From positions 1 through 64,000 of the IMG/VR virus record IMGVR_UViG_3300025133_000027: a DNA stretch of 64,000 nt, one strand, 5' to 3'. A program made the translations under genes and the position numbers. The notes beneath the pieces were generated by a model, which was not told where the DNA came from, ran no database searches, and was given only the letters and a program-made list of their open reading frames with translations. Positions 13,439-25,939 of the stretch are shown here, piece by piece; position 1 is the stretch's first letter, and each line of letters begins with the position of its first letter. This DNA is from a virus.

Positions 13439-13467
13439 TTGAGTTAAAGTCTCCTTCCCGATATAAT
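13439..13467 (+). promoter_or_regulatory. sigma70-type promoter with AAGTC in spacer
   Basis: TTGAGT-17-TATAAT. Confidence 0.7.
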
Positions 13468-13522
13468 GGAAGAGCGAAAAAGGAAATATCGGGAAGGAGC
13501 CGCAAGACTTGGAGGTAGGCTA

Positions 13523-13741
13523 ATGGATTATGTTTTGTGTCACTTTTGCGGTGGCGAATACAATAAGAAACGCAAAGACTTAGGCTATCGGTCTTGCCTT
13601 GATTGCGGACAAACCCATGCTCAAAAAGAGAAAGACTATAAGGCGAAATGCACAGCACCGGCATACAATAAAGGTGCATATCAATATGTTTCAACAAAAG
13701 CCCAAGTTATTGGAATCTTTAAGTGTGGCAGTGATAAATGA
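13523..13741 (+). CDS. C4 zinc-finger protein (DksA/TraR-finger-like)
   Basis: CHFC...R--LGY--CLDC; GGAGG SD. Confidence 0.7.
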   Translation: MDYVLCHFCGGEYNKKRKDLGYRSCLDCGQTHAQKEKDYKAKCTAPAYNKGAYQYVSTKAQVIGIFKCGSDK

Positions 13742-13950: not shown

Positions 13951-14460
13951 ATGAGTAAAACACTGACAGCTCAAGATTATGAGCGCATTTATATCAGAGG
14001 AGCAATGTCCTCTTTCACACGTAACCTTCCTAAATATGTTGACTTCGAGATTGATAAACGAGATGTTGAAATCTCGATCGCAGGGACCAAGATCTGCACG
14101 ATGAAACTGATTGTCGGCAAAGAGATTTATTGGGCCTGCGAAACTCGTAACCATTCGAGAATTAACCTAAAAGTTGCTGATGCGACAGTCTTACTAGATG
14201 ATATTCTAGGTCGTCTTAAAGTCAAGAGAGTTCCCAAGGTTGTCAAACCAGACAAGAAGCTACTGCAACTAATTGCTAACTCAGGCAAAGCAGCTCTGGA
14301 AAAGAAAAAGAAGCAGCGTCGTTGTGGGTTGTGTCGTGAGTTTGGACATAACCGCCGAACATGCCCACAGAACAAAGAACGATTCCTCGGCAAAGGTGGC
14401 AAGAGCAAAGTCCCAGCGCTAAAACGAAAGCGTCGCAAGCGCACTGTTAAGAGGAAGTAG
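13951..14460 (+). CDS. CCHC zinc-knuckle protein with basic tail
   Basis: CGLCREFGHNRRTC; tail KRKRRKRTVKRK. Confidence 0.8.
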   Translation: MSKTLTAQDYERIYIRGAMSSFTRNLPKYVDFEIDKRDVEISIAGTKICTMKLIVGKEIYWACETRNHSRINLKVADATVLLDDILGRLKVKRVPKVVKPDKKLLQLIANSGKAALEKKKKQRRCGLCREFGHNRRTCPQNKERFLGKGGKSKVPALKRKRRKRTVKRK

Positions 14461-14864
14461 AGCATTAGAGCACTAGGATACTACCTAGGTGGGAGGGGGT
14501 CGCATGCGTGCATACACTATGAAAGTGCCAGTAAACCAATATGATATGGATAAGGCCAGAACTGTTGCACACAGCAGAAATTTTCTTGTAGTTGAAAAAA
14601 ATCAAAGTTTAATTATTTTATATTGTTTAAATAATATAAGTATTGAATATACATTTCGATCCCTAGAAGGATTTCAAGCGTTTAAGCGTCGCTGTTCATT
14701 AATTTATAACAGGAAATCGGCGCTAATAACTTGTGGACAACGCAATATTAAGCTTGAGGCTGCGGCAGAGCCGCTCCCATTGCTGAGAAATTCAAGTAAC
14801 TTTAGACTAAGCCAAAACAATATTGAGCTTGGAGCTTTAAAATGGGTTATGTTTTGTAGTTTTG

Positions 14865-15154
14865 AATAAAATCAGGAACTTGCGAAAGCTCAATGATCTC
14901 AAAGGCTTAGAAAAAGCTATTGATCTCAAAGGCTTAGAAAAAGCTCAATGATTTTCATGTGTTAAGAAAACTGAATCATTTCATGAGGTTAGCAAAAACC
15001 TAATAAAGTCAAAAGGTTAAAGAAATCCAATGATTACCGTGAGTTACGATAACCGAATGGTTTCGGGGAGTTACCTTTATCTAATGATTTCGGGGAGTTA
15101 TGAGAGTCTAATAAATTCAGTAAGTTACCTTTGTCCAATGATTTCAGGTAGTTA
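14865..15154 (+). repeat. tandem array of 11 IHF-consensus-like sites, 27-28 bp period
   Basis: AAT(G/A)A..TC......TTA units starting at 14865, 14892, 14919, 14947, 14974, 15002, 15029, 15056, 15083, 15110, 15137. Confidence 0.85.
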
Positions 15155-16008
15155 CTGAATGAGGGACTGCAAAGCAGTTGCTACAACCCCATGGTTTTAT
15201 TGACTAAACTGAGTATCTCAGGACCCTAATTATTTGTCAAGATGAGGTAAGGTCGTGTAATCATTGAGGAAACACGATATATGGGCAATTCACAAGTCTT
15301 CACATTCTCAAAATGAGACACCAATGATATTGGGCACTTACGATGTGGAAATATGGAACACGCGCCCGATCTTGCTTGACTTGCAAGTCCTTGAAATCAT
15401 TGAGGTTCTCTGCGGTGGTGAAAAATCCCCCAACTATACAAACATCAACCGAATATTTGTCGAATGCCCACTAGACGAATGAGTGGATTTGAGGCCGTTT
15501 CAAAATGATCGCGTTTACAGCAACAATTACAGAGACTTCCAGCTCCACAAACGTCAAGTTGGGCATTTTGAGCCGGATCTGGCCGATCTGCCCTCCGCTA
15601 AGTGCCTGAAATCACACACCGGGCAACAGGGCTTGGCGAAAGGCTGGCTATTGAGGGCCGGTTCTGCCATAATCCGGGGGCGGCAAGGGAAACAACCTGA
15701 GCCGGCCCGAAAGGGAGCCTGCGCGGCTCTAACCGGGCGATTTTTAACCTATTCCTTGTCACACCACTGCGCGTGGTCAGACATTCAGGAAAAGGCTAGC
15801 AGAATCAATACCTTAGCAGGTGTGTTGGTAGTACGCTGGAAAAGCTCAATGAAAACTAGTGGTCAAACGTGGTCGGAAAGACTATAGCAGTAAGTACCTA
15901 ATGCCATTAGGGAAAAGCCTGCAAGCCTTGGGTTAGAACGAGGGCTAAGTAGTCAATTACGATGGTCGGCAGTAGAATCGGCGCACGGTAAGTATATAGA
16001 ATGATAAA

Positions 16009-16078
16009 GCAATCGCACGCTAGGTGCGGCAAGGGCTCAAACCCCTTGTTAGGGTTCGATTCCCTAACGATTGCGCCA
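16009..16078 (+). tRNA. non-canonical tRNA-like RNA, anticodon CAA
   Basis: GCAATCG/CGATTGC-G-CCA; 6-bp anticodon stem; no variable loop; 6-bp T stem with TTCGATT. Confidence 0.65.
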
Positions 16079-16198
16079 AGTTGCAAGGGGTGGACATAAA
16101 CATATCCCCTTGCAATTTCGGGGGGTTAGAAAGATAAAGGTCCGTCGAGGGTGCGCGGTTATGCGCCAAGGCCCTGAGCTAACTCCCCAATTTATAAC

Positions 16199-16248
16199 GA
16201 TATTTGCTGGTTGCCTTGCAAGGGTTCAAATCCCTTGAAATATCGCCA
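16199..16248 (+). ncRNA. tRNA minihelix (acceptor + T arm + CCA only)
   Basis: GATATTT/AAATATC-G-CCA; CAAGGG-TTCAAAT-CCCTTG; 13-nt linker. Confidence 0.7.
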
Positions 16249-16477
16249 AGTTAGAAAGCCATAGGCCGAAAAGTCGGGCTAGGCTATACTGAGAGGGTAG
16301 AAAGGAAGGACGCGAACGAAAATGAAGCGGCTTCACGATGCTGAATGATTTCAGCTAGTTTCGAAGGGCTTTGCAGCAAAGTCGAAATCGGTTATCCTAT
16401 CTATGCGAAATGGTTGAGGTTCTAGGTTGAACCTTACGGAATAATGAGAACGAACCCTCTAAGGGTTCAAAGGATAC

Positions 16478-17209
16478 GTGAAAATGAGTGTTATTGTTGA
16501 GGATTTTGATTCGTCGGTTGTTTTCTCCAAGGGTGAGGGCAACGACGTTGCTAAGGTCACGTTTTCAAAGGAGGATTTGCCGCTTGTAGCGGTTGTTATC
16601 CAAGCCCTTGATAAGAAACGGACTCCGAAGGGCGCTGCTCGCGTGGCTTCTTCGAAGCTCACTAAGATCGGCTATGCCGTGCGTGAGAAAACTCGTCGTG
16701 ATTCCGACGTGTTGCGAGTCGCTGAGTCGCTGGCAAACTACGGGATGTTGACGAAAAAAGTGAGTGAAAACAAGATGTTCACTTACTTTGAGCCAAACGC
16801 TGAGTTTGACTCGGAAGTTGGTGATTCTGTTAAGGAAAAGGCTGCCGGTGCCTTTCGTGAGAAAGTAAAGGCAGTTGCGAAGGATAAGGCTTCTAAGCCT
16901 GCTTCCAAGCGTTCCGGTCGCCCTCGCAAGACTGCATCACAGGAGGACTTCGAAGCCCTTGTGAAGCGTGTGGACGCCCTTGAGGCTGCGCTTGCTGGCA
17001 CTGAGTCGAATGAGGACGCGAAAGCGTCTGACAGCGATTCTGAAGCTTCCGAGGCTGATACCTCGGAAGTCGCTGAAGTGACTCAGGATTCTGAGGATGA
17101 GACGGAAGGTGAGGAAATTACTGACCTTTCCGAGTGCTCCCCTGAAACCCTTGCACTTCTCGCGGCTTGCGAGGACGAGGACGAGGACGATGAAGCCGTC
17201 AACGGCTAA
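16478..17209 (+). CDS. hypothetical protein with AT-hook-like GRPRK, short coiled coil and acidic tail
   Basis: 243-aa ORF with biased codon use. Confidence 0.8.
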   Translation: MKMSVIVEDFDSSVVFSKGEGNDVAKVTFSKEDLPLVAVVIQALDKKRTPKGAARVASSKLTKIGYAVREKTRRDSDVLRVAESLANYGMLTKKVSENKMFTYFEPNAEFDSEVGDSVKEKAAGAFREKVKAVAKDKASKPASKRSGRPRKTASQEDFEALVKRVDALEAALAGTESNEDAKASDSDSEASEADTSEVAEVTQDSEDETEGEEITDLSECSPETLALLAACEDEDEDDEAVNG

Positions 17210-17310
17210 GTCCTCGATTTCATAGGGAAAAGCGTTAGGGCGCTGCGATGGTTTGGACCCTGAGAATCCTACCATTGCCCCTGTGAACTGGGATCTGTAG
17301 TGATTCCGAC

Positions 17311-17363
17311 TAGTTAGCATGATGGATGCGATAGCGCGGGTTCAAATCCCGTCTAACTAGCCA
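17311..17363 (+). ncRNA. tRNA-like RNA without anticodon arm
   Basis: TAGTTAG/CTAACTA-G-CCA; GCGGG-TTCAAAT-CCCGT; mini D hairpin only. Confidence 0.7.
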
Positions 17364-17644
17364 AGATGATTGAATTAATTGGGCGAGCGACTTGCCGGAA
17401 GGTCGCAAGTGAGTGGAATGTGATGGTTTGCACCTAAGTTCGTGTTTTCCTTGGCATTAGGAAGGCACGTTAAATATCTTGAACGATTGCAGGCACTTTG
17501 AATCTCTAGCCTGTAGAATCCTGATAAACACAACGAAATCAAGAGGTTATAATGGTTCGAAGTCGTGATGGTCCCGCAAGGGTTTAATATTACTAGGAAA
17601 GATTAGTAAGTCCGCGTGTTGCGGCAGCTTTCCGCAACAAAAAC

Positions 17645-17713
17645 ACAAGGTTAGCAGCAAAGGGCTGCAATCGTGAATGATTTTAGCGGGTTCGACTCCC
17701 GCGCCTTGTGCCA
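17645..17713 (+). ncRNA. tRNA-like RNA with shortened anticodon loop
   Basis: ACAAGGT/GCCTTGT-G-CCA; GCAGC/GCTGC D arm; AATCG-TGAA-TGATT; GCGGG-TTCGACT-CCCGC. Confidence 0.65.
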
Positions 17714-17880
17714 GGAAAAGCGGAACAATATCGGGTAGTTACAGGTATTTAGGCAGAGTCACTGAAAAACTCCATAAAGTCAGTGACTTAATGCCGCCTG
17801 TGATCGGCTTGGACGTATAGACGGGGCGGGCGACGAAAAACCGTTGCCTATTGCATACTTAGAGGGCGTTCCGCTTTTCC
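17714..17880 (+). ncRNA. structured ncRNA closed by a 13-bp stem
   Basis: GGAAAAGCGGAAC/GTTCCGCTTTTCC encloses a long hairpin (AGTCACTGA/TCAGTGACT). Confidence 0.55.
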
Positions 17881-18212
17881 TTTAATACCACGAAAGTGTG
17901 AGTAATATTCGCTAGTTGCGATGGTCTAATAGAAATTGACTAATTGCCGTTGCCACTCGGCGCAATCCTTTGAAATTGTTGGGCTTTCCCACTCAAGCTG
18001 AAAAGCTGAACAATTGACATTGGTTGCGAGGCTGGTACAACTCTCCAATATTGCTCCACTTTCCCAATACAGGGTCCAGCCCTAACTGGCGGTTATCGTT
18101 GTCGAAATCAGCGAGGCAATAAACTTGAACAATATCAGGAGCATAGAGTGGTACTTCTTTTGTTTGATATATAAATCCAGTGAATTCAGGGAGTTGTGCA
18201 TGACTGCCCTGG

Positions 18213-18279
18213 ATCACTGATGTAAGACCTTGAAATTAAAGGGAAAAGCCTGGAAGTTTCAAGGTCTTACATCAGTGAT
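18213..18279. repeat. perfect 23-bp inverted repeat, each arm with an IHF-like site
   Basis: ATCACTGATGTAAGACCTTGAAA ... TTTCAAGGTCTTACATCAGTGAT, 21-nt loop. Confidence 0.9.
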
Positions 18280-18308
18280 GATTAAGCCAACGATTACAGG
18301 GAGTTACA

Positions 18309-18530
18309 ATGAACCTTCAAGCTTACATGGCGAACGTGCATAACGCATTGAATCGACATCGAAACTGGCGATACGGACAAGCGTTATTCAACGTGCTATT
18401 TGATATGTACCCTAACAGTGCAAACAAAGTGCGTGGAACCAATGCAGATCCTTTCTACGCTAAGAACACTAAGAGTCCGCAAGTCGGTGAATTCATGGAC
18501 TTTCTTTTTGAGGAAGCGAAACGCGGCTAA
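18309..18530 (+). CDS. hypothetical phage protein (WRYGQ-FN family)
   Basis: WRYGQALFNVL...RGT-ADPFY; GGAG SD. Confidence 0.8.
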   Translation: MNLQAYMANVHNALNRHRNWRYGQALFNVLFDMYPNSANKVRGTNADPFYAKNTKSPQVGEFMDFLFEEAKRG

Positions 18531-18816
18531 GTCCGCGAAAGAACAGAGCAATTCAGGTTGAATGGTTTAGATAGTCACGCATTACTCCTAACCATTCGTA
18601 ATTGCTGTAAGTTTTCCTGGCGTGGGGAAACACCTGAAAGTCTAGTTAATTAGGATACTAATTAGGTAGCCATTGTTGAATGGTTTCAATGGGTTAGACT
18701 CCCATTGGCTTCGAGAGTCGTCGGTACGGAATCGCTAAACAATGAATATCGTTGGGGATTGTTAGTAAGCAAGCCAACTAACCATGCTGGCAAGTCTTCA
18801 TTTCCTCAACGATTAT

Positions 18817-18890
18817 GCGCCTTTAGCTCAGTTGGATAGAGCATCGGTCTTCTAAACCGAGGGTCACAGGTTCGAATCCTGTAAGGCGCA
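18817..18890 (+). tRNA. tRNA-Arg(TCT)
   Basis: Canonical cloverleaf; TCGGT-CTTCTAA-ACCGA. Confidence 0.93.
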
Positions 18891-18930
18891 CCCAACGCAG
18901 TGAAATCATTGCGAAAATAGGAGGTTAAAC

Positions 18931-19164
18931 ATGAATGTGGTTGAAATTACTTTGCTTTCTAGGAGTGCCGGTCGTAGAAAATACGGCTATTATTTCAAGC
19001 AGGTGGATCACACTGTATTGATTAGGGAAGTATCGCAAGTTACGAACCCTGATTTTACCAGGGAACCCTTTGAGTTCGAAAAGGATTTCGTAAAAGTATC
19101 TATCAGGGATATTGACCGTGTTATTGAAGGGTTGCAGGCTATGAAGTTGCTCGTCAGCAAGTAG
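18931..19164 (+). CDS. hypothetical protein
   Basis: AGGAGG SD. Confidence 0.75.
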   Translation: MNVVEITLLSRSAGRRKYGYYFKQVDHTVLIREVSQVTNPDFTREPFEFEKDFVKVSIRDIDRVIEGLQAMKLLVSK

Positions 19165-19582
19165 CCGAAATCATGGAGAAAATCATGAAAGCACGTAAAT
19201 ATCGAGTGATTCTGGCACGTTGCGGGATGCCACGGGTTCGAATCATCACGATTGAAGGTCGTTCGGATGCGTATGATTTCCGAAAAGCCTATGTAAATCG
19301 CAACGTTGGGTTGAAGCTGAGTGATCTAAGGGTCGTGCAGGTGCGACGATGATTCGTAACCAACGGGATTCAAACGGAATTCTAAGGCTGGTGCATCGCA
19401 CTGATATTATTGAGCAAAATGAGGATGGCGAGGTTAGCACACTAACGATTGTCTTCCTAAGCCCCAAAAAGCGCAATAATGTTATGGTGTTACGCGACCC
19501 TATAAGGGTTCTAAAGATTAGAAACGAGGCTCTTAGAATTCAGGAATTCTAAATAATAATAACAAGTTAGGGAGTAATTAAG

Positions 19583-19723
19583 ATGGCTAAGGGAAAGAAC
19601 GCATTCGGCAAGTCGCAAGCTCGCGGAAAGACTACGAAAAAGAAGACTCGCCAGGGTCAAGGTAAGTTCTCGAAACGAAAGGGAGATCGCAAGATGTCCC
19701 GTGGCCAGGGCAAGGCTTGTTAA
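19583..19723 (+). CDS. small basic phage peptide (KKTRQG...RGQG type)
   Basis: MAKGKNAFGKSQARGKTTKKKTRQGQGKFSKRKGDRKMSRGQGKAC; GGAG SD; shorter than any ORF in the supplied track. Confidence 0.7.
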   Translation: MAKGKNAFGKSQARGKTTKKKTRQGQGKFSKRKGDRKMSRGQGKAC

Positions 19724-19932
19724 ATGAACGAAATAATTACGAAAATCAAGAGGTACTTTTGTCCGCATCCTATAAGTGCCCGAAAGCATGGGTATTTGCC
19801 GGAACAACCCTGGCGTTGGTCTGAGTGTTCGGAGTGTGGTAGAAAGTGGTATCATTACATAGACTTGGCGATCGTAGTCAAGTAACGTCGTGAAATTGCT
19901 AGGTTTTCTCCTAGTTATAAGGAGGTGAACCA

Positions 19933-20103
19933 ATGGCGAAAAAGCGAAAGAAGAAAAAGTTCAATGAAATCAAAGCCTTGTCACGCAAGCTTGCTATGCG
20001 TGATGGTGCATATGATGGAAGGTTCAAAGTGCGCGTAATTGCTAACAAAAAGCGCAAGACTAGCCGTGAGGCTTGTCGGAAAAGAGTTAGCGAGGAATCT
20101 TGA
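19933..20103 (+). CDS. small basic peptide, weakly ArfA-like
   Basis: AAGGAGGTG SD; GAYDGRFKVRVIANKKRK. Confidence 0.7.
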   Translation: MAKKRKKKKFNEIKALSRKLAMRDGAYDGRFKVRVIANKKRKTSREACRKRVSEES

Positions 20104-20160
20104 AAGATTTCAACTAGTTAGAGGTCCGTGGGATTTAATCAAGCGATAACAGGAGGTTAC

Positions 20161-20370
20161 ATGGCAAAGCTGAGAGTCGTTAAGCGTCGAACGGTTGGCG
20201 AAGCTGTATTTTGGACGGGATCGCTGAAACGTCGCGGAATTGTTGAGAGTGTGCAGGGAAACCGATGCACGGTGTCTTGGTATACGAAAGACGGTGATTT
20301 TATTCAGAAAGATGATGGATGGCGTCACTGTGAATTGATCGACCGTGTTGCAATCGTGAGGTATATCTAA
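20161..20370 (+). CDS. hypothetical protein
   Basis: AGGAGG SD. Confidence 0.65.
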   Translation: MAKLRVVKRRTVGEAVFWTGSLKRRGIVESVQGNRCTVSWYTKDGDFIQKDDGWRHCELIDRVAIVRYI

Positions 20371-20729
20371 TGAGTAAGGCCAAAAACACTAGCAAAGTTA
20401 AGGACTTATCTGGTGAATTTGGAGGGAACACAGTGAAAGCCTTGCTCAATTTCCCAAAGATTGCACGGACTTATATCATATCAGAAAAAGGCACGCAATT
20501 TCGTAAGATTGGAGTCAGTGTTGACGTGCGAAAGCGATTGTCAGACCTACAAACAGGAAATCCAAGAAAGCTGAATGTTATTCATGTGTTCCCAGGCAAC
20601 GTAGAAAGGTCCATTCACGCAATTCTTGAAGGATATTCAGGGGTTGCAAAAGGTGAATGGTTCGAATTGACTGATTCGGAAGTCAGTGTAATCGTTGACA
20701 CAATTCAAGAAATGTTTACAACGTGGTGA
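20370..20729 (+). CDS. T5orf172/MUG113 (GIY-YIG-like) domain protein
   Basis: KIG-S----KRL--LQTGNP--L, E--IH, GEWF. Confidence 0.85.
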   Translation: MSKAKNTSKVKDLSGEFGGNTVKALLNFPKIARTYIISEKGTQFRKIGVSVDVRKRLSDLQTGNPRKLNVIHVFPGNVERSIHAILEGYSGVAKGEWFELTDSEVSVIVDTIQEMFTTW

Positions 20730-21069
20730 CGGTTCCACGGTAAACATAAATAGTCTAAATAACTTAGGAGGTTATAAGACGCACAAGCAAGTCCTTGATA
20801 TGACTTGCGAAAAGTGAAACTATCAGCAACGCGGGAATGGTAATATATTCAAGGGGTTAAGAACTCCTCGTCAGGCAGGCTCATAACTTGCCCTCGCAGC
20901 CACAACCCAGCGAAATCGCTAAGGAAACTTGCCGGATGGCTTCACCATCAACTATGAGGCACGAAACTTCAATGATTTCGCTGGGTTGCACCATAACACA
21001 CCGTCAACGCTTGCAAGGCAACGCGCAGCGCATCTTGACGGTATTTACGAACAATATCAAGGAGTTATC

Positions 21070-24052
21070 ATGCAAGTGTATGTTATTCAGTATCTATACG
21101 CCTTCGAAATGGATAAGACCATTGAAGTGATTGAAATCAATGAGGATTTGCTGAAACGTAAGATATATAAAGTGTTCGAAGCAATGTTACTAGTCGAAAC
21201 AACCGGGGAAGGTAGTGAAATCTTTGATGAATCGCTGATGAAGCGAAACGGTAAGAAAATCAAAAAGTTTACCGAAGGTTGGTATACCTACGGTGATTTT
21301 GATAATGCAATTGATGTTATTATCAGAAAAGTCTATCAATAACAAGGAGTTACAACAATGACTAACAAAAACAATGGGTTTCGCGTAAGGTTCTTTATTG
21401 CAAGCCGGCCCAAGCCGATAATCACTAAAGATTTCAAGGAGTTCCCCGAGGCTGCGCGTTACGCTAAAACTATGCGAAATACTTGCGGATCTGGTTGGAA
21501 ACTTTCTTATGAAAATTTCCCAATACTTTCAGCAGGTTGGGAAGACAGTCACGGTGCTTTATGTGCCATTGACCCTAACGACTAAATCACCAACAATAAC
21601 AGGGAGTTACGGCAGTGAGTGGATTGGAGTTGGACAAAGTGCTACATGCACGCGAAATCCTTGCGGAAATGGATATTCCGATATTCCGCAAGGATCTTCG
21701 CAAGTTGAGCAACCTAAGTTGGTTAGCTCGTAACGTCTCGATTCGAAACGGGAATCACCCGAAGCTCAATGAATTGCTCTCGATTCTGCGAGAAATTAGA
21801 AAAGAGCAAAGATAACAGGAGGTTAACATTTCTTATGAAAACTAAGTTAAAGCTATATGCACAAGCACAAGGCCGCGTAATTACTAACGTTTCTTACGAT
21901 TGTGAAATTCCTGCATTACGCGACCTTAATTTGATTTTGCTAAACCCGCTAGATCCTTGGACTTTCCAGTTTAAGGCAACCCGCCGAAAAGATAGGTTTA
22001 TTTGGACTTCAAAAACAACCATTGTCACAATGGTCGTAACTGCGCCATATGATTAGTGTTTCGTGCCTGCTTGTCTTTCCTTTTGTTTTTCTGGTGTTGC
22101 CGGGGATTGAAACAGACTAATATCATTGCAGTTTTGGAATAATGAACAGCGTTCGATTCGCTGTGCTGCAACCAATTGAAATCATGGAGGAAACATGCAA
22201 TATGAGCTATGGAAGGCTGTCATTGTGTCTTTTGTCAGTTATATCGCAGTGTTTGCGGTTGCCCTGATAATTGTTACAATTACTTAACAAAAACAAGCAC
22301 TTAGGAGTTAACACATGGGAAGGCAATATTGTTACTTAGTTACAAAGAGCACAGGATACGAGATTGGAGATGGTCCGCAAGTCTTTGATTATAAACCCGA
22401 ATTGGTTGACGATTACCTTAATGTAGTTATCGGAACAATTACAAAGGGTAAGATGATCGTCACACTGAATCACTCTTTAGAACCTAACGGAATTGAAGGA
22501 TATATCACAGGGTTATACACAACTGATATTGTTGACGGTTGGATTCGAGTGCAAGCCATTGAGATCAATAGGAGATACGATGCCAAATAAGAAAAGCCTT
22601 AAAAAACAACTAGCTGAAGTCAAAGCGCATAACAAGGTTTTGCGTAAGGATAACAGCAAGTTGCAAGCCAATTTGAGAAAGTCTATTCAAGACGGTTGTG
22701 ATTTGAGTGAAGAACTCAATAAAATCGCGGACTTATTGCATCCCTTGATGCAGTACGCAGATCACCTATAAAAACAACAACTTGGAGAACACATGAAAAT
22801 CGTCAATTATCTAAGACCAAAAACTCTCAAGAGTTTCAACAACTTGAAGATCGGACAGTGTTGCTTCGCAACCTATGACAATTGTGAGCCTTTTGTTGCA
22901 ATGGTGATCGATGGTCATGAACTCGTTGTAAACATTACGGATTCTGAGTTATACGAGATCAACGACCCAGCCCTTGAATTCATTGAGGAAATTCCGATGG
23001 ATCAGGCTCGACTAATCATCGGGAAACCTGAATAAAAACAACAACTTGGAGAACACATGAAAATCATCAATGAAATCAATGGCAACGAGGCCGAGTTGAC
23101 TGAGGCTGAAATCCTCTTTCTTATTGAGGACTTGGCGAGGAGCATTATTGAGTGCCAAAAGGTCAATGATTCCAAGCGGTTGTGCTTGCAAGTATCAATC
23201 AACAACATGACGAGAATCTTCAAGAAATTCAAGGGGTTGCTGGCCGAGCCGGAACCCGTTGAAACCTTTGAGATCCGTGACTTGACGACTGAAGAATTCG
23301 ATGAATTACACGCAGTTACAGACTTTTGGCACGAGGAAGGTCAAACCCCTTATAATCAATCAGATTTTGACAATTCGGTAACTCTCCGAAAACTATCCGA
23401 AAAGGTAAGTGACTGTTATTACGAGGTTTGGGAGGATTACGATTCTCTCAGTACAATCAAGGGGTTCACTCTCAAAGAGATTGAATTGGCTCTAAGTATG
23501 CTAAAGCATGACGATTTCTTCGATACCCCGTATGTGAGTGACTCCACGATCGCAAAGGTCAATAAAGCAATAAATTCAACCACTTAGCAACAAAGGAAAA
23601 CACAGCATGGAAAAAGCATACGGACTTACAGGGTTAACCAAGCATCAAATTGATGAATTAAGTTACACACTTAGCGTTGAGGAGCATCTTGACGACGCAA
23701 CCGTTGAGCAAGTCAGTGAAATCATTGACAACATGAATGATGATGAATTCAATAAATTCATGAACAATATCAGCAACTTGCGAGGAAACTAATGAAAATG
23801 ATCAATAAAATCTATGTAGTAGAGCTTTCGTCGCATGATGGTCGAACTCAAGCTAGCTTTAAAACTCAGCAAGGTGCCAAAAGGCTTATAGCGAGACTAG
23901 AAAAGCAAAAAAAGTTTGTTGAAGAAAACAGCAATGATCTCCGCGAACACGAACTCAGGTACAACGACAAGGAAACAGGGCAACAATTCCGATTCTCACA
24001 TATTACCTTACCCACACGTATACATTTCTATACAATGCCCCTTCATCAGTAA
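21070..24052 (+). other. cluster of ~10 small hypothetical early genes (21070-21342, 21358-21585, 21615-21815, 21835-22056, 22315-22590, 22580-22771, 22793-23035, 23057-23587, 23607-23792, 23792-24052)
   Basis: Co-oriented short ORFs with GGAG SDs, several SDs embedded in IHF-like sites. Confidence 0.65.
22126..22174 (+). ncRNA. tRNA minihelix (acceptor + T arm + CCA only)
   Basis: TTGCAGT/GCTGCAA-CCA; ACAGCG-TTCGATT-CGCTGT; 13-nt linker. Confidence 0.7.
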
Positions 24053-24333
24053 CCAACCGAGATCACCTCGGAACAAGCTGAAATGATTAAGGATTCTCTA
24101 GCTTACTTTGAGAATGTCATAAGCGACAAGGAATTCAATAAATTCATGAACAATATCAGCAACTTGCGAGATAAACTAGAAGCAGCAGGACTATAACATG
24201 CAAAAGACATATAATATCACAGGGTTGACGCCCAGTGAATTAGCTCAGTTAGAATTTGTACTTAGAGAGTACGCGAAAAACGCCAGTCTTTACGCTGCGT
24301 TGTGGGCTAAGATCGTAACTGTAAGGAAGTAAC

Positions 24334-24498
24334 ATGGAAAAGACATATAATCTCATAGGGTTGACCAAGCGTCAAATTGATGAGTTAAGTTACGCACTTA
24401 ATGTAGAGGAGTGTCTTGACGACGCAACCGTTGAACAACTCAATGAAATCATTGACAATATTCAGCCAACCAAGATCATTGAGGAAACTAATGGATAA
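24334..24498 (+). CDS. small protein, paralog of 23607-23792
   Basis: MEKTYNLIGLTKRQIDELSYALNVEECLDDATVEQ versus MEKAYGLTGLTKHQIDELSYTLSVEEHLDDATVEQ. Confidence 0.75.
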   Translation: MEKTYNLIGLTKRQIDELSYALNVEECLDDATVEQLNEIIDNIQPTKIIEETNG

Positions 24499-24835
24499 TA
24501 ATTCCAACAAAATCCACAAGGTAGAGCTATCCTCCCAAGAGCTTAGAATCATTGAGAGATCAATTGAATTCGCCAGAAGATGGGGACACTTCGATGGCTA
24601 TAAAAACCCCAATGCAATCAAGGGCTTGCAACTCAAAGCAATGGACACCCTCTCAGGAGCCATAACCCCTGATGATCACTCAGGTTCTCAGATAACAGGG
24701 CTATCCCTGCAAGACCTTGATTCCATTACGGATTGCATTGAAATAGCAGAAGGAACAGGCTATACGGAACGCTTTGATCACAATGACATTCTGGAGAGGC
24801 TGGAGGCAGCCAAGGCAACAGCCTGTAATCATTGA
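24491..24835 (+). CDS. hypothetical protein
   Basis: GAGG SD; two L(S/T)xxE/D modules. Confidence 0.65.
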   Translation: MDNNSNKIHKVELSSQELRIIERSIEFARRWGHFDGYKNPNAIKGLQLKAMDTLSGAITPDDHSGSQITGLSLQDLDSITDCIEIAEGTGYTERFDHNDILERLEAAKATACNH

Positions 24836-24949
24836 GCTTTTAATGAGGACTCAGGAGAGGAGCCCATAACCTCTCATTATGATTATACATTAGGGGAATG
24901 GATTGATTATCCTTTGGAACCTAGCGAAATGATTGAGAGACTTGAGTTG

Positions 24950-25670
24950 AGTGATTAACAGTCACTTCCAGTAGTCTATAACATATAGGTTAAATACATA
25001 ATGATTACACATACTTAGAGTAGGTGGTATCTGTTTAGTTAATGATTATAGGTAGTTGGTAGAGGCGGGTAGGGGTGTAGCTCCCATATACCACTAGGCC
25101 CTCTAATATATAGTCCTAAGTATAGGTTTTTATTGAGTTTTTCTTGTCAATAGGCAAAATAAATTAAATAAAGTTGGGCTACCCAATCAAATCAGCTACT
25201 TACACCTGTTGACAACGACTTTAACACATGATCCACGCACCTAAATAAATAAAGTTTAACGATCATGCAGGGTTACGGGACGCGGGCACCACCCCCAAAT
25301 AAAAACAGTAGTGATTCCGCAGGGTTACAGCAATGTCAAGGGGCACCGCAAAGAAATATTTCTCAGCGATAGTGCTTGACATACCTAAGCCCATAGAATC
25401 ATTGAGCTTTCCATTACAAATTAAACCCCAATGATTACAGGCACTTAGCTTTCCCAATATCATTAGGGAATAAACCTCAATGATTACAGGGAGTTAGCAG
25501 TGTCAAGTCACTGTTTAGCTTTATTCCTTAATGATTTCAATGACTTACAAAACATAATCATTAAGGAAAAAAACGTAATGATTTCAAAAGGTTGCACAGG
25601 GGGGAGGGGAACCCCCCGGTATCATAGGGGAAATCCCGGAATGTAAGTCCTTAATATCATTGGGTTTTTG
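24950..25670. repeat. second dense cluster of IHF-like sites in both orientations, with G and C runs
   Basis: AATGATT(A/T)..-type sites at 25000, 25041, 25430, 25479, 25530, 25577; inverted copies near 25385, 25446, 25545, 25643. Confidence 0.75.
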
Positions 25671-25939
25671 CTATATAATCGACTAAGTCCGTCTCCGAGA
25701 GCTGATCAATTTTTCACAGAATCGGTTTTTGAGGTTGTCGGGGTGAACTGCACGCTCCCGAGTCCGTCCATATGACAATATTATTTTTTTTAAAAATAGC
25801 AATTCCATTTTTACAGGGGGAAACAACACCAATCTCCAATAGTTGCATATAACTTAACAAATATAGGCTGGCAGCTCTAATATAGGCTTATATTCCCTAT
25901 TTTTGGAAAGACAGTTGGTGTCGTTTTCCCTAGGGAGAG

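Follow-up and report, generated by a model that had tools for sequence, protein, structure and literature searches.

About 105 copies of an IHF-like DNA motif in an 11-kb island of a phage genome

Sites for integration host factor (IHF) are known as single architectural switches. Bacillus phage SPO1 encodes TF1, a protein of the DNABII family that prefers hydroxymethyluracil DNA and has about a dozen sites, and the RIP/RIB (BIME-1) elements of Escherichia coli hold an IHF site between inverted repetitive extragenic palindromes (REP), at low density and chromosome-wide, and are not known to lie in genes. Iterons are specific to the initiator of one replicon, the uptake signal sequences (USS/DUS) of Pasteurellaceae and Neisseria occur genome-wide in bacteria, and the PeSL mobile regulatory cassettes, reportedly described by Arbiol, Comeau and Krisch in 2010, are said to lie in hyperplastic regions of T4-type phages. 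Here we analyze a window of 64 kb from an uncultured marine phage, the first part of the 176,254-bp IMG/VR record IMGVR_UViG_3300025133_000027, in which an asymmetric motif of 26–27 bp (A/T tract, YCAATGA, WWTCAR, N4, TTR) recurs throughout an island of about 11 kb. The element is of a known kind, an IHF-type site, here with a sharper and extended consensus; a carpet of ~100 such sites in 11 kb, written into genes, is to our knowledge undescribed.

Confinement of the motif and selection on its DNA

Motif copies were located with matrices of different origin. The seed matrix was built from only 12 copies, taken from the two arrays that flank the island, and at a threshold of at least 12 bits it found 34 matches in the island interior against 0.2 in dinucleotide shuffles, with one match in the other 165 kb. 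The iterated matrix (at least 13 bits) gave 105 sites in 14,861–25,665, 60 on the + strand and 45 on the − strand, and nine in the rest of the genome. An external matrix, made from 242 sites that all come from other phages, placed 60 of its 60 matches in the 176-kb genome (at least 10 bits) within the island, which amounts to 6% of that genome. Enrichment was ~260-fold at the loosest cut-off of the external matrix, and above that cut-off there were no matches outside the island. An earlier note on this DNA had described a motif that recurs across 14.7–25.7 kb and is inconspicuous elsewhere; the counts inside and outside bear this out, and the comparison of matrix density with shuffled sequence refutes an absence of enrichment.

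Site density is about one per 100 bp. Copies occur on either strand and are found between genes, over ribosome-binding sites, in the tRNA-like RNAs and within ~25 small + strand genes. Neighboring sites are separated by a median of 72 bp and a minimum of 27 bp, with clusters at 43–55 bp, and no helical phasing of island sites was found outside the 27-bp arrays. These arrays were recovered independently by Tandem Repeats Finder, and a repeat finder run without prior information split the motif into several families. It is the longer motif, not a short exact core, that carries the real signal. The core WATCAANNNNTTR occurs 14 times in the window, where 6.6 are expected, with nine of the 14 at 15.8–24.7 kb. 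All six exact positions given in the earlier note (15803, 17537, 21055, 24616, 16601 and 20788) are among these matches, but strict WATCAA is enriched only ~5-fold (0.83 vs 0.15 per kb). The longer pattern AATGATTWCRNNNNSTTR has 14 matches against 0.03 expected, all within 15,083–25,594.

As had also been noted earlier, sites occur inside open reading frames (ORFs), with 38 copies lying wholly in genes. When synonymous codons were reshuffled with the proteins held fixed, the in-gene copies fell from 38 to 2.5 ± 1.5 (maximum 7 in 100 trials), a loss of ~93%; scored with the external matrix, the same reshuffling gave 0.7 copies against 15 observed. Since the in-gene copies vanish on codon reshuffling, the proteins are not their cause, and it is codon choice that makes the motif. 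Frame preference is also seen in genes, AAT-GAT-TTC being read in 12 of 17 + strand copies and GAA-ATC-ATT in 18 of 21 − strand copies. Both preferred frames correspond to one triplet partition of the duplex, the sole partition that is free of stops on both strands. The near-equal copy numbers on the two strands suggest that duplex DNA is what is recognized.

Conservation of the motif was assessed in a diverged relative, the metagenome contig L330, which carries a counterpart of the island at 81–97% nucleotide identity (~90% overall) with cassette-like gains and losses. It holds 72 sites, all in the island part and none in the next 8 kb, and 58 of the 63 alignable sites are kept. Between the window and L330, high-information positions of the motif changed in 3.7% of cases and low-information positions of the same sites in 8.1% (Fisher p = 7e-4), so that the former changed 2.2 times less often; non-site island DNA changed in 7.9%. 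DNA private to L330 or to the window is equally carpeted, at 6–8 sites per kb. From the codon-shuffle test and this diverged relative, the motif is kept by purifying selection acting on the DNA.

Resemblance to IHF sites and occurrence elsewhere

Canonical IHF sites contain four consensus elements: a WATCAR-type core, TTR, AA/TT steps and an A-tract (PMC1874591). On alignment to lambda H', the motif has a counterpart of each in the same register, the core and the A-tract varying among copies. TTR lies four bp 3' of the core in 81 of the 105 island copies, with T frequencies of 0.96 and 0.99. The upstream AA step (index 4–5), present in 78 of 105 copies, is exactly 9 bp before the step at index 13–14, which is AA in 33 of 105 copies and mostly AG otherwise; both positions coincide with TT/AA positions in lambda H'. 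WWWCAR is seen in 45 of 105 island copies (C at index 12, 0.84; A at index 13, 0.74), and in 321 sites of other contigs the second core position is A in 0.53 and T in 0.47, about half of these sites being strict WATCAR. The arrays show the A-tract clearly, as does the cross-phage consensus (A 0.56–0.66 at positions −4 to −1), while in the island positions −3 to −1 are 85–92% A or T and a run of at least four A is present in 19 of 105 copies. We interpret the motif as an IHF-type site that is optimal and adapted to the host, with IHF as its presumed binder.

Pattern scans of IMG/VR returned 114 stretches with two adjacent copies, where by our own estimate fewer than one is expected, and the consensus over 115 viral contigs (20–63% G+C) is AAAA-n-YCAATGA-WW-TCAA-N3-S-TTA. 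A three-copy scan of IMG/VR and a two-copy scan of bacterial genomes gave mostly unrelated A/T-rich repeats, and only matches confirmed by the full matrix were used. BLAST matches in Yersinia T7-like phage DNA do not score on the matrix, and a literature search for the motif string matched only primers. Apart from the 72-site relative L330, other phages carry 1 to 11 copies, with 11 as the maximum in any other contig examined. An unrelated contig (L233) has an array of 11 exact-consensus sites with a 27-bp period, similar to the left border array of the island.

The cultured phages that bear the element have hosts in Myxococcus, Rhizobium, Ruegeria, Sphingomonas, Stenotrophomonas, Pseudomonas, Klebsiella and Erwinia. 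Rhizobium phage RHph_N65 has two copies amid ATCTCCGCC iterons, adjoining a helicase/primase gene, and Sphingomonas phage Kharn has one copy beside TATACAAC iterons and a primase/helicase gene. Marine T4-like fragments carry three or four copies just upstream of sigma-70-like promoters, near uvsX/gp41 and gp45/44/62. Pseudomonas phage uligo and Erwinia phage Ea9-2 each carry one copy, near the right end or the terminase gene; the single copies of Klebsiella phage Soft and Ruegeria phage V10 lie between divergent genes, and there are two copies in Myxococcus phage Mx1. In Stenotrophomonas phage DLP6 (L321, KU682439, 142.3–144.9 kb), which we call T4-type from a block of small ORFs adjoining a baseplate wedge gene, three tandem pairs of exact IHF-consensus sites (AAATCAACSACTTA) each end exactly 32 nt before TATACT, and a clear −35 hexamer is absent. 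By their arrangement, these paired sites look like an undescribed class of IHF-type-dependent promoter in an early region.

The element was also found outside phages. An alphaproteobacterial metagenome-assembled genome (MAG; G013, G+C 68%) has 17 exact copies, nine of them identical, against none for a reversed control pattern. Four copies were examined (L326–L329), and each sits ~40 bp in from the terminus of a multicopy element that is present at least nine times, with a second AATGAAATCAA copy ~70 bp further in; this is probably the end of an insertion sequence or transposon with host-factor sites. Among the viral contigs, in a group comprising L019 (1500–1580, 2520–2590 and 3284–3350), L298, L294, L284 and L289, each intergenic region has two convergent copies ~41 bp apart that flank a G+C-rich hairpin. 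The settings of the element (origins, promoters, genome ends and a likely transposon end) are classical IHF settings. Because unrelated virus types share the element, its binder is more likely to be a host factor than a phage-borne protein.

Binding protein, purpose and rival explanations

The best explanation, which we hold with moderate confidence, is that the IHF of the host, or another DNABII protein like it, occupies these IHF-type sites, so that the island would be folded or coated. We infer both IHF as the binder and folding or coating as the purpose. No gene of the HU/IHF (DNABII) family was found in the 176 kb of genome examined, which points to a host protein as the binder. After entry, host IHF or a similar DNABII protein would bind many of the ~105 sites, each bound site would bend the DNA sharply, and the 11 kb would fold into a compact, protein-coated nucleoprotein domain. 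The border arrays would correspond to the short arrays that stand upstream of early promoters or beside origins in other phages. The favored purpose would be architectural control of early expression or insulation of the module; IHF might also be titrated, whether incidentally or as an aim.

Several observations weigh against binding by IHF or against the purpose proposed. The earlier note had likewise read the motif as an IHF site; the four elements in register and the classical contexts agree with that reading, but strict WATCAR is found in just 11 of the 105 island copies, the core being mostly TTTCAR or TTACAG. Lambda H', H1 and H2 lack the CAATGA half that is strongly conserved here and for this reason score poorly (less than 3 bits on the full matrix); the binder may thus differ in specificity. 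Arrays with a period of 26–27 bp cannot be fully occupied by a protein with a footprint of ~34 bp, no promoter element was found at a fixed distance from the island sites, and copies also occur in MAGs labelled Patescibacteria and Methylomirabilota, in which classical IHF is not established. The record is rated 97% complete in IMG/VR, and its DNA is present in four further assemblies at 99.97% identity or more. Compared with L209 (ENA ERZ27249009 contig k141_555273; 195,956 bp), which comes from one of them and is the same phage, the two ends of the record fall short by ~1.3 and ~18.4 kb, together ~19.7 kb, and this remainder could encode a binder of the phage's own. Finally, binding by host IHF leaves the requirement for ~100 sites unexplained.

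These points bear on what else might read the motif. A different sequence-specific protein, to which we assign a low but appreciable probability, could bind it, the likeness to IHF sites then being partial convergence; candidates are a phage-encoded protein, from the unseen 19.7 kb or among the basic mini-proteins of the island, and another host nucleoid protein. Such a protein would account for the CAATGA half and TTTCAR core, which deviate from lambda sites, and for the tandem period, which fits a smaller footprint, and the island does contain two very basic ORFs of 46 and 56 aa. Against it stand the register of the four IHF elements, the absence of a DNABII gene from the genome examined, and the occurrence of the element in T7-like, N4-like, T4-like and siphovirus-like phages, in Mx1 and at a bacterial transposon end, a range that makes a shared mobile-element protein unlikely. 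A special role of the island in the phage chromosome is compatible with IHF as the binder. Much as the earlier note had supposed, the island could be first-entering or terminal-repeat DNA, perhaps shielded from nucleases, a packaging start or an origin zone; the border arrays would then be iteron- or pac-like. Both borders have arrays and A/T-rich stretches, the copies in uligo and Ea9-2 are close to a genome end or a terminase gene, those of some other phages adjoin origin iterons, and the island genes are all small, co-oriented and of early type, as in the terminal modules of SPO1 or T5. We nevertheless regard such a role as unlikely, since IMG/VR lists no end repeats for the record, about nine-tenths of the copies are dispersed in genes and RNAs rather than at the border, and no initiator or terminase gene is adjacent. 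Also compatible with IHF binding, and distinctly unlikely in our judgment, is that the island is a deliberate IHF trap or condensation body. With ~100 sites per genome copy, replication would bring the sites to the order of 10^4 per cell, which is comparable with the cellular IHF pool of E. coli. A trap would strip IHF from origin firing, sigma-54 promoters, CRISPR spacer capture and the excision of prophages or satellites, and at the same time the phage would keep its own takeover genes protected and highly expressed within a folded nucleoprotein domain.

The remaining explanations do without individual binding sites in DNA. The copies could mainly be recombination linkers that shuffle gene cassettes and were spread by duplication, as the duplicated segments D3, D6, D7 and D11, one mosaic joint at a site, and the cassette-like differences between the window and L330 might suggest. 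Yet breakpoints between the window and L330 fall within 10 nt of sites in 6 of 16 cases against 6.1 expected at random, information-rich positions are under purifying selection, degenerate copies are poor substrates for homologous recombination, and neither promoter-like (28 vs 24.1 expected) nor terminator-like sites (12 vs 11.4 expected) rise above shuffle level in the island. We therefore consider linkers very improbable. Scarcely credible is that the motif works at the RNA level, where it would serve in the processing or translational control of early transcripts or as an RNase site. Seven + strand copies do contain, or end just before, a Shine-Dalgarno (SD) sequence at most 8 nt from the start codon, 17 of 25 real gene starts have a copy on either strand ending at most 45 nt upstream, and copies abut the CCA ends of tRNA-like units; but 45 of the 105 copies are antisense to the sole coding strand with an unchanged conservation pattern, and in other phages the element is found within origins or ahead of promoters, where the DNA is not transcribed in the corresponding direction.

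If binding by host IHF or a similar protein is correct, a kilobase-scale domain of ~100 sites would be a new viral use of a host nucleoid protein, one that might organize, protect or boost an early module, or soak up IHF. The extended optimal site of ~27 bp, common to many phages of Proteobacteria, could help in predicting which phages depend on IHF and in finding the promoters and origins of uncultured ones, and it might also give hints of the host group.

Island layout, relatives and comparison with known systems

The motif-bearing island (14861..25665, both strands) begins with the left border array (14861..15158, +), in which Tandem Repeats Finder and the matrix identify 10–11 head-to-tail copies with a 27-bp period. 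The best-scoring single copy (30.7 bits) follows on the − strand at 15380..15405. A G+C-richer structured-RNA part (15900..18900, +) contains tRNA-like elements ending in CCA, a standard tRNA-Arg(tct) at 18816–18894 and an acidic 241-aa ORF (16484–17209) that holds three in-gene copies. At their 3' ends, tRNA-like units are overlapped by copies of the motif, as at 16062. The tRNA-like RNAs are non-standard: that at 16009–16078 has an anticodon-like CAA followed by CCA, and units consisting of T-arm, acceptor and CCA end near 16250, 17352 and 17712. ARAGORN made no call in this non-standard cluster, and Rfam gave only weak matches to tRNA-Sec and tmRNA ends.

About 25 tightly packed small genes of 23–176 aa occupy 18309..24835 (+) and hold 35 of the 38 in-gene copies. 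Only a T5orf172/MUG113 protein (20370–20729, +) and one PHROG without assigned function are recognizable among them, the rest being ORFans, and no relatives of island proteins were found in IMG/VR. That SD sequences are built into the motif, as the earlier note had stated, was confirmed at 18285, 20146, 21331, 21588 and 21812. In the copy at 18285..18310 (+) the variable N4 is ACAGGGAGTTAC and the ATG comes next; further + strand copies have an SD in N4 in the same way at 21046, 21331, 21588, 22282, 22763 and 23027. The in-gene copy nearest to lambda H' (24607..24632, +) combines an A5 tract, an AA step, AATCAA and TTG. Another in-gene copy (23705..23730, −) is read as E-I-I-D and lies at a joint of the duplicated segments D3 and D11 of paralogous small genes. 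The small paralogous family at 23606–24500 (genes 23607, 24083, 24198 and 24334) is composed of shuffled segments D3, D7 and D11, and genes 22793 and 23057 have an identical 38-bp translation-initiation region (D6) in common. Two motif halves form a perfect inverted repeat of 23 bp around a 21-nt spacer (18213–18279), immediately ahead of gene 18309. Hairpin formation by pairing of the 5' flank with N4, assessed by eye, is not a general feature of the motif.

At the right border, 0.9 kb without ORFs contains a cluster (25382..25665, both strands) of four + strand copies 47–51 bp apart and three interleaved − strand copies. The last − strand copy overlaps the −35 hexamer of a sigma-70-like promoter (25651..25679, +), TTAATA-17 nt-TATAAT, a consensus match that points out of the island. 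By-eye comparison of the motif with a sigma-54 promoter and with the T4 MotA box revealed misfits in spacing and key bases.

Just upstream of the island are genes for a small zinc-finger protein with a weak Lar-like match (13466–13741) and for a small protein with a CCHC zinc knuckle and a very basic tail (13951–14460). At 254–1437, two runs of 69-bp (23-aa) tandem repeats with a MORN-like period lie within a coding region, and two independent assemblies both terminate within 1.3 kb of these repeats. No close cultured phage was found; megablast of the island against cultured phages gave no match, and the best cultured-phage match of the flanking MoxR-type ATPase is in cyanophage S-TIM5, at ~30% identity. 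Distant relatives reached through the flanking VWA gene (L001–L016) have just two nearby genes in common with the window and lack the motif. Complete distant relatives, with ~49% protein identity in flanking genes, show zero motif enrichment, which indicates that the island is specific to this lineage. The island is thus a lineage-specific, early-type module of tRNA-like RNAs and ~25 tiny + strand genes.

In its gene content the island resembles the host-takeover module of SPO1, which likewise combines many tiny early genes with preferred sites for a DNA-bending DNABII protein; here, in contrast, no DNABII gene was found in 176 kb and the sites have a sharp sequence consensus. RIP/BIME-1 elements share with the motif a repeated intergenic IHF site and a G+C-rich hairpin, and the L019 contig group shows the mirror form, two sites flanking a hairpin, whereas the island copies mostly lack hairpins and many are in genes. 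The left array, with 10–11 direct repeats at a fixed 27-bp period, is similar to replication-origin iterons. Unlike iterons, its sequence is common to unrelated phages, lying beside their true iterons in RHph_N65 and Kharn, no initiator gene adjoins the arrays, and roughly nine in ten island copies lie scattered over the two strands, outside the tandem array.

PeSL cassettes are alike in that there, too, a short element recurs where the small early genes of a T4-like genome adjoin. The island differs in that many of its copies are inside genes; promoters and terminators are at shuffle level, no element stands at a fixed distance, and breakpoints are not enriched at sites. Uptake signal sequences are also asymmetric, present on both strands and tolerated in genes in preferred frames, but all 60 external-matrix matches here fall in 6% of a phage genome, and elsewhere among phages the motif has a local role in regulation or at an origin. 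The canonical IHF sites, of which H' of lambda attP is an example, are alike in the AA/TT steps 9 bp apart and TTR and, to an extent that varies among copies, in the A-tract and a WATCAA-like core; they differ in that the island core is usually TTTCAR rather than WATCAR and is accompanied by the additional conserved CAATGA. Known replicons have one to a few IHF sites, whereas the island carries ~105 in 10.8 kb, genes included.

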